DNA from: Escherichia coli
GTDB taxonomy: Bacteria > Pseudomonadota > Gammaproteobacteria > Enterobacterales > Enterobacteriaceae
Direction: 5' to 3' (one strand)
DNA: 64,000 nucleotides
Assembly: GCF_003334335.1 (NCBI RefSeq)
Contig: NZ_QOWQ01000003.1
Made by a program: the position numbers and the translations under genes
Part shown: positions 51,678-52,085 of the stretch, piece by piece
Layout of the letters: each line of letters begins with the position of its first letter
Numbering within the stretch: the stretch's first letter is position 1
Notes under the pieces: model-generated
Databases searched by the model: none
The model's input: only the letters and a program-made list of their open reading frames with translations
What the model was told of the DNA's origin: nothing

Positions 51678-52085
51678 ATGAAAATGATTGAAGTTGTTGC
51701 CGCCATCATTGAACGTGATGGCAAAATTTTACTCGCGCAACGCCCCGCCCAGAGCGATCAGGCGGGATTATGGGAGTTTGCCGGTGGTAAAGTCGAGCCG
51801 GATGAAAGTCAGCGGCAGGCGCTGGTGCGTGAGTTACGCGAAGAACTGGGCATCGAAGCAACTGTGGGTGAATATGTTGCCAGCCATCAGCGAGAAGTTT
51901 CGGGGCGGATTATCCATCTTCATGCCTGGCACGTACCCGACTTCCACGGGACGTTACAGGCACATGAACATCAGGCGCTGGTCTGGTGCTCACCTGAAGA
52001 GGCGCTGCAATATCCGCTGGCCCCTGCTGACATTCCATTATTAGAGGCGTTTATGGCTTTACGCGCCGCCAGACCAGCGGATTAG
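51678..52085 (+). CDS. nudG: Nudix hydrolase NudG (CTP/5-methyl-dCTP pyrophosphohydrolase)
   Basis: ORF track 135 aa; Nudix box GGKVEPDESQRQALVRELREELGIEA. Confidence 0.93.
   Translation: MKMIEVVAAIIERDGKILLAQRPAQSDQAGLWEFAGGKVEPDESQRQALVRELREELGIEATVGEYVASHQREVSGRIIHLHAWHVPDFHGTLQAHEHQALVWCSPEEALQYPLAPADIPLLEAFMALRAARPAD

Follow-up and report, generated by a model that had tools for sequence, protein, structure and literature searches.

The convergent genes nudG and ynjH of Escherichia coli share 35 nt at their 3' ends, and the best explanation, held here with a probability of about 80%, is that this tail-to-tail overlap is genuine and ancient and that coding constraints, not a regulatory design, account for its existence and its length. 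In the proposed mechanism, the C-terminal peptide of YnjH is under strong purifying selection, and the last helix of NudG (approximately residues 118-130), encoded on the other strand, reaches into the end of ynjH. With the YnjH sequence as it is, a nudG stop can lie either at codon 128 or at codon 136 or beyond, the latter depending on the wobble bases of Thr80, Ser79 and Leu/Ile78. None of the 75 loci has the first of these stops, which would cut the NudG helix. Because the only earlier stop is the one that cuts the helix, translation of nudG would be forced on for five to seven extra residues (131-135 or 131-137), whose sequence is the antisense shadow of W85-N81 of YnjH, and the 35-nt form of E. 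coli differs from the commoner 41-nt form just by a silent ACT codon at Thr80 of YnjH. The account is built on the overlap and its conservation, an enumeration of possible stops, a codon bias at Val88 and a shorter free-standing NudG; it would make selection on the NudG helix the cause of the codon bias. The overlap itself is ordinary and a long-standing part of the K-12 and RefSeq annotations; only the explicit stop-codon lock and the avoidance of certain Val88 codons are additions to what was known.

Coordinates and annotation of the overlap

Three features of the window (the whole stretch of 64,000 nt that was analysed) define the overlap:

51678..52085, plus strand: nudG coding sequence, 135 amino acids, TAG stop at 52083-52085 (ORF listing, RefSeq, NF007834, PDB 2RRK)
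52051..52323, minus strand: ynjH coding sequence, 90 amino acids, GTG start at 52323, TAA stop at 52053-52051 (ORF listing, RefSeq, PF07383)
52051..52085, both strands: dual-coding overlap of 35 nt (direct reading of the sequence)

On the plus strand, the overlap encodes NudG from the second base of F125 to D135 and the stop; on the minus strand, it encodes YnjH from the second base of T80 to P90 and the stop. The nudG stop (52083-52085) lies inside ynjH codons 80-81 and the ynjH stop (52051-52053) inside nudG codons 125-126, in each case on the strand opposite to those codons. The register sets first codon positions against each other, the second position of nudG codons against the third (wobble) position of ynjH codons, and the third position of nudG codons against the second of ynjH codons. 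Thus, changes that are silent in ynjH are amino acid changes in NudG.

The order of genes on the E. coli chromosome is ynjE (forward), ynjF (reverse), nudG (forward), ynjH (reverse) and gdhA (forward). The preliminary description of this DNA had identified nudG and ynjH, assigned them to opposite strands and reported their 35-nt convergent overlap, all of which is correct by the ORF listing, by RefSeq and by the K-12 coordinates (nudG 1839514-1839921, plus strand; ynjH 1839887-1840159, minus strand; PMC7373196 Table S1), from which an overlap of 35 nt also follows. Its count of two convergent overlaps of coding sequences in the window holds as well, the other being the 41 nt shared by cho and ves; in the MB51 annotation of the corresponding stretch, coding sequences overlap at these two of ten convergent junctions. 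The possibility had been raised that homology-based correction would shift the stops until no overlap remained; no such shift was seen, RefSeq and K-12 giving the same 35 nt, and since stop codons cannot be moved by re-annotation, that outcome is out of reach short of a sequence error. Both coding sequences are present with an identical 35-nt overlap in the RefSeq (PGAP) annotations of other E. coli genomes, and the locus was found in 5424 of 5426 complete E. coli genomes. In one genome, E. coli 203740 (H1), the annotation of the matched stretch includes an IS1 transposase. The length of the overlap is unremarkable by chance: in random sequence, an antisense frame would run for 11 codons without a stop with a probability roughly estimated at 0.6.

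The product of nudG is a CTP/pyrimidine (d)NTP pyrophosphohydrolase of the Nudix type, which scores 267.9 bits against the NCBIfam equivalog model NF007834 (cutoff 156) and is identical over residues 1-135 to the protein of PDB entry 2RRK, an NMR structure. YnjH is a small, probably secreted protein; its family is DUF1496 (PF07383), with 409 homologues, PF07383 being present in all of those listed. The mean column identity of YnjH is approximately 74%, and conservation reaches the last residues.

Conservation of the overlap among enterobacteria

A scan of species, with one genome each, yielded 80 loci with a relative of ynjH; with the window added, 81 segments of 80 nt were compared in a fixed register, with no insertions or deletions inside them. 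An intact nudG abuts ynjH in 75 of the 81 segments, always in the identical register, so the suggested check for conservation of the overlap in related species came out positive. The 75 loci cover approximately 19 named genera, including Escherichia, Salmonella, Citrobacter, Enterobacter, Kluyvera, Buttiauxella, Kosakonia and Siccibacter, a distribution that marks the overlap as ancient. The 41-nt form, with 57 loci, is the most frequent, followed by the 35-nt form with 16; overlaps of 26 nt and 44 nt occur once each, in C. amalonaticus (L009) and in L082, respectively.

Several loci depart from this arrangement. In C. koseri NCTC10786 (L010), a 1-nt frameshift of nudG, which could be an assembly error, stands beside an intact ynjH; in Trabulsiella guamensis (L013), an internal deletion fuses the Nudix-box region of nudG to ...EAFMAL, and ynjH is again intact; and in Pluralibacter (L058), nudG is 1.9 kb away from ynjH. 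In two loci labelled Enterobacter (L064, positions 2770-2774; L067, positions 2701-2705), the block ynjF-nudG...ydjX is absent and ynjH converges on xthA with a gap of 3 nt, and in a further locus (L054, positions 2770-2869) ynjH faces xthA at a distance of approximately 100 nt.

The C-terminus of YnjH, ...STNPLVWRRV(K/R)x, hardly varies among the 81 segments, and the position of the ynjH stop is the same in all 81. The core NPLVWRRV is unchanged in L064 and L067, where no nudG lies opposite the end of ynjH; conservation of the YnjH C-terminus is therefore independent of the overlap.

It is extremely improbable that the overlap is an artefact of annotation, one of the two ORFs being unreal or shorter so that no segment truly encodes two proteins. 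Such a reading could appeal to the fact that YnjH matches no NCBIfam model and that residues 131-135 of NudG seem unstructured in an AlphaFold model, but the sequence itself fixes both stop codons, both proteins are kept in the same register over approximately 19 genera, YnjH is conserved to its penultimate residues with its stop in place in every segment, NudG is an enzyme that has been characterised and whose structure, of 135 residues, is solved, and the ynjH mRNA is FliA-dependent by qRT-PCR (PMC4183435).

Stop codons available to nudG opposite ynjH

The codons that place the stop of nudG are the following:

52060..52062, minus strand: ynjH Val88 codon GTA, whose wobble base is the middle base of NudG Leu128 (TTA, 52059-52061)
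52083..52086: nudG stop TAG (52083-52085), from the silent YnjH Thr80 codon ACT (52086-52084) next to Asn81
52089..52091, plus strand: in-frame TAA two codons past the nudG TAG, the stop position of most other genera (41-nt overlap)

All synonymous codon combinations for YnjH residues 75-90 were enumerated and the nudG frame was read for stops. Stops are possible at four junctions of YnjH residues only. At V88/K89, a Val88 codon GTT or GTC creates TAA or TGA at NudG codon 128, truncating the protein after A127; at T80/N81, the Thr80 codon ACT creates the TAG found in E. coli at codon 136; at S79/T80, the Ser79 codon must be TCT; and at L78/S79, CTC or CTT (or the Ile equivalents) followed by AGY creates TGA or TAA at codon 138, the position used by most genera. 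At NudG codons 129-135, no stop is possible without a change of YnjH. The remaining Thr80 codons, ACG, ACC and ACA, place Ser, Trp and Leu, respectively, in NudG, and the frame continues to the next stop. Read-through or suppression of the E. coli TAG would append just two residues before the TAA at 52089-52091.

The Thr80 codon is ACG in 40 loci, ACT in 17, ACC in 12 and ACA in six. In 16 loci, ACT stands before an Asn81 codon (AAT or AAC), and in these NudG is 135 residues long. These loci are scattered over many separate genera, a pattern that suggests repeated independent origins of the 35-nt form. Since this form occurs in many genera, the last two residues of the longer NudG would be dispensable.

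The codon usage of Val88 differs from that of other valines. Val88 is encoded by GTA in 65 of the 75 loci, by GTG in ten and by GTT or GTC in none, raw counts that overstate independence because the loci are phylogenetically related; at the other Val sites of ynjH in the same genomes, pooled, the frequencies are 56% GTG, 22% GTC, 12% GTT and 10% GTA, so that GTT and GTC together make up 34%. The two codons do occur at Val88 of ynjH genes with no overlapping nudG, namely GTT in L064 and GTC in L067. Assuming that the 19 genera are independent, the absence of GTT and GTC has a probability of roughly 0.66^19, or approximately 4e-4. The absence is consistent with selection that keeps the last helix of NudG (118-130) intact. 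Weaker biases in the same direction are present at Arg87, where 62 of 75 loci have CGC and hence R129 in NudG, and at Val84, where 58 of 75 have GTC and hence R132. Across all wobble sites of ynjH, diversity inside the overlap (normalised entropy 0.53, nine sites) does not differ significantly from diversity outside it (0.67, 37 sites; Mann-Whitney p = 0.10), so that the argument for selection exerted by NudG is carried by a few sites, Val88 above all.

The C-terminal end of NudG

By four lines of evidence, the functional part of NudG ends near residue 130. The AlphaFold model of NudG, which was built on 14 orthologues with a moderate mean pLDDT of 74.6 (61 in the last block), has a C-terminal helix at residues 118-130 and a coil at 131-135. 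Alignments of other solved Nudix/MutT proteins to NudG stop at residues 117-127. The NudG of Pluralibacter, the sole free-standing NudG that was compared, ends ...DAFITAKR* at approximately position 130. Finally, the frame antisense to ynjH in Pluralibacter reads ALRAARPADSC* all the same, with nudG not attached to it; the sequence of the NudG tail is thus a by-product of the YnjH sequence.

A role for the tail itself, the residues past the helix (131-135 or 131-137) being needed for NudG and the overlap being selected for that reason, is improbable. The choices of ynjH codons that favor R129 and R132 of NudG would accord with such a role, as would the fact that NudG never ends before residue 132 in any locus of the comparison. 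Against it, NudG is 132, 135, 137 or 138 residues long, and the changes that switch between these lengths are for the most part synonymous in ynjH. The spread of the 35-nt form over many separate genera suggests that it arose repeatedly and independently, and the amino acids at NudG positions 130, 133-135 and 136 follow the wobble bases of YnjH. In Pluralibacter, where NudG is free-standing, the protein stops at approximately residue 130, and A131 is fully determined by R86 and W85 of YnjH and owes its invariance to them alone.

Transcription through the junction

Transcription of ynjH begins upstream of its GTG start at a recognizable promoter:

52358..52385, minus strand: sigma-28 (FliA)-type ynjH promoter, TAAAGTTT-N12-ACCGTTAT (motif and RegulonDB transcription start site)

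The RegulonDB start site of ynjHp (via PMC4183435 Table S3) maps to 52351 on the minus strand, which leaves a 5' untranslated region of 28 nt with AAGGAG. The motif is kept at the same distance in approximately 55 of the 81 segments, with variable spacers. The ynjH gene is an established target of FliA in E. coli, by FliA ChIP and by qRT-PCR dependence (PMC4183435), and its Salmonella orthologue STM1300 is also a FliA target (bioRxiv 10.1101/2020.09.09.289983). Table 2 of Fitzgerald et al. 2014 gives a different FliA motif for ynjH, TAACGTTATTGTCTCTGCTACTGATAAC, which occupies positions 52335-52362 of the plus strand and is directed away from ynjH; it sits over the RegulonDB start site at 52351, Table S3 of the same paper notes a non-overlapping promoter sequence, and the candidate -10 elements of this motif and of the listed promoter overlap on opposite strands. 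A weak sigma-70-like site, a possible other source of antisense RNA over nudG, is present within nudG on the minus strand.

A scan of positions 51400-52700 found no terminator-like sites at or near the nudG/ynjH junction on either strand, the sole hits lying within ynjF. Predicted RNA folding around the overlap, on both strands, shows no more structure than shuffled sequences (z = +0.67, -1.02, +0.06 and +0.14), a search of Rfam with positions 51000-53000 gave no match at E <= 1, and entries for ynjH and nudG are absent from the supplements of the 3'-end mapping study of Adams 2021 (eLife). An 11-bp inverted repeat, CGCTGGTCTGG at 51976-51986 and CCAGACCAGCG at 52069-52079, was considered as a long-range stem and rejected as a product of chance: only E. 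coli-like loci have it in perfect form, with no compensatory changes elsewhere, and it arises because A-L-V-W of NudG and P-L-V-W of YnjH use the same codons on opposite strands.

Published total RNA-seq counts (PMC7373196 Table S1c) compare the wild type with single samples of the RNase III mutants rnc-14 and rnc-38 (PMC7373196 Tables S1b, S1c). Sense reads of nudG amount to 9.0 RPM in the wild type and 3.8 and 5.6 RPM in the mutants, and antisense reads to 45.4 RPM and to 29.2 and 17.0 RPM; the corresponding values for ynjH are 80.0, 79.0 and 27.4 RPM (sense) and 2.7, 0.9 and 2.5 RPM (antisense). Because the 35 shared bases are too few to account for 45 RPM, the antisense RNA must span a good part of nudG. 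With a sigma-28 promoter and no intrinsic terminator, the ynjH transcript very probably runs antisense into nudG, to judge from these read counts. Divided by gene length, the counts of Table S1c are approximately 0.29 RPM per nt for ynjH sense, 0.11 for nudG antisense and 0.03 for ynjF sense. A minus-strand transcript that left ynjH would pass antisense through nudG before reaching ynjF, and read-through from ynjH to ynjF, as in a noncontiguous operon, is conceivable; the three noncontiguous operons reported by ExcludonFinder do not include ynjH-nudG-ynjF (PMC12288877). The neighboring ynjE (plus strand, stop ending at 50962) and ynjF (minus strand, stop beginning at 50971) also converge, with a gap of 8 nt, and are in the published excludome list too.

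The transcripts of nudG and ynjH overlap, as follows from the overlap of their coding sequences and agrees with the literature listing and the antisense reads. The preliminary description had gone further and proposed that the overlap could couple expression of the two genes. As a rival to the coding-constraint reading, this would mean that the overlap is maintained so that ynjH, driven by sigma-28, represses nudG, or the reverse, by transcriptional interference or by RNase III cleavage of the duplex; sanitation of the nucleotide pool would then be tied to the motility programme through the flagellar sigma factor. The pair indeed belongs to the 165 convergent excludons found in half or more of 58 MG1655 transcriptomes (PMC12288877), antisense reads of nudG exceed sense reads fivefold with ynjH well expressed, double-stranded RNA captured by p19 maps to nudG at 6-35 RPM (PMC7373196 Table S1b), the junction has no terminator, and the sigma-28 promoter of ynjH is conserved over genera. 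However, a transcriptional overlap is scored trivially by any overlap of coding sequences; nudG sense reads were not raised in the single samples of rnc-14 and rnc-38; nudG has decayed or been lost beside an intact ynjH in L010, L013, L064 and L067; deletion of ynjH has no motility phenotype (PMC4183435); and NudG and YnjH have no known functional connection. Since the coding constraints fully account for conservation of the overlap, that conservation is no evidence for regulatory coupling, and both functional coupling of the two genes and maintenance of the overlap for the sake of regulation are judged unlikely. The ynjH antisense RNA may all the same dampen nudG while the flagellar regulon is on. 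A bolder version is quite doubtful: that the terminator-less sigma-28 transcript of ynjH is a conserved antisense regulator of nudG, possibly continuing into ynjF, by which motile cells lower a MutT-like enzyme, with ves/cho as a second FliA-linked case of damping DNA-care genes.

The overlap was already annotated and the pair already catalogued as overlapping transcription units, and in that respect the result carries little weight beyond annotation hygiene. What the coding-constraint reading offers is a checkable account of a frozen overlap, in which a conserved peptide strips the opposite frame of every stop over eight codons and the single escape would be selected against. The pair would thus be a textbook-style case of dual coding shaping the choice of synonymous codons, and a caution against taking the conservation of an overlap as evidence of regulatory coupling.

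Comparison with known systems

Tail-to-tail overlaps of bacterial genes are usually explained by elongation of a 3' end into the neighboring gene after loss or absence of a stop codon. The overlap of nudG and ynjH, at 35-41 nt, is longer than typical convergent overlaps. Like other such pairs, it joins two conserved genes on opposite strands that encode proteins through their common 3' ends, the extended tail of NudG (131-135) is poorly constrained, and the length of the overlap shifts by point mutations that make or remove stop codons. Unlike them, it has an exact candidate reason for not shrinking, namely that the YnjH peptide forbids stops at nudG codons 129-135 and that the one earlier option would be selected against.

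Bidirectional intrinsic terminators between convergent genes have been described by SEnd-seq, together with a model of RNA polymerase collision (bioRxiv 10.1101/2022.10.23.513370). The nudG/ynjH junction resembles these in that the genes converge and their 3' ends are closely apposed, but it differs in having no intergenic space and, within 51440-52700 on either strand, no GC-rich hairpin with a T-tract. With no terminator at the junction, termination would take place inside the partner gene by another route, probably through Rho or polymerase collisions.

An excludon consists of convergent or divergent transcription units that overlap and are expressed in a mutually exclusive manner (reviewed in PMC7154746; E. 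coli catalogue in PMC12288877). The nudG/ynjH pair is like an excludon in that the genes converge, their transcripts necessarily overlap, the pair is catalogued and antisense RNA dominates one partner; the mutually exclusive expression and RNase III dependence of an excludon are for this pair hypothetical, and the limited rnc data on nudG show no de-repression.

A parallel lies in the same window (33703-35125), where cho (33703..34590, plus strand) and ves (minus strand, from 34550) also converge and share 41 nt at 34550-34590. Like ynjH, ves is small, reportedly FliA-dependent (PMC4183435) and highly expressed (157 RPM; PMC7373196 Table S1c); like nudG, cho is weakly expressed, with antisense reads (19.2 RPM) exceeding sense reads (7.9 RPM; PMC7373196 Table S1c). 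The cho/ves pair is also in the excludome list (PMC12288877), and its proteins differ from NudG and YnjH. Both pairs set a sigma-28 gene against a gene of DNA or nucleotide care, ynjH against nudG and ves against cho.
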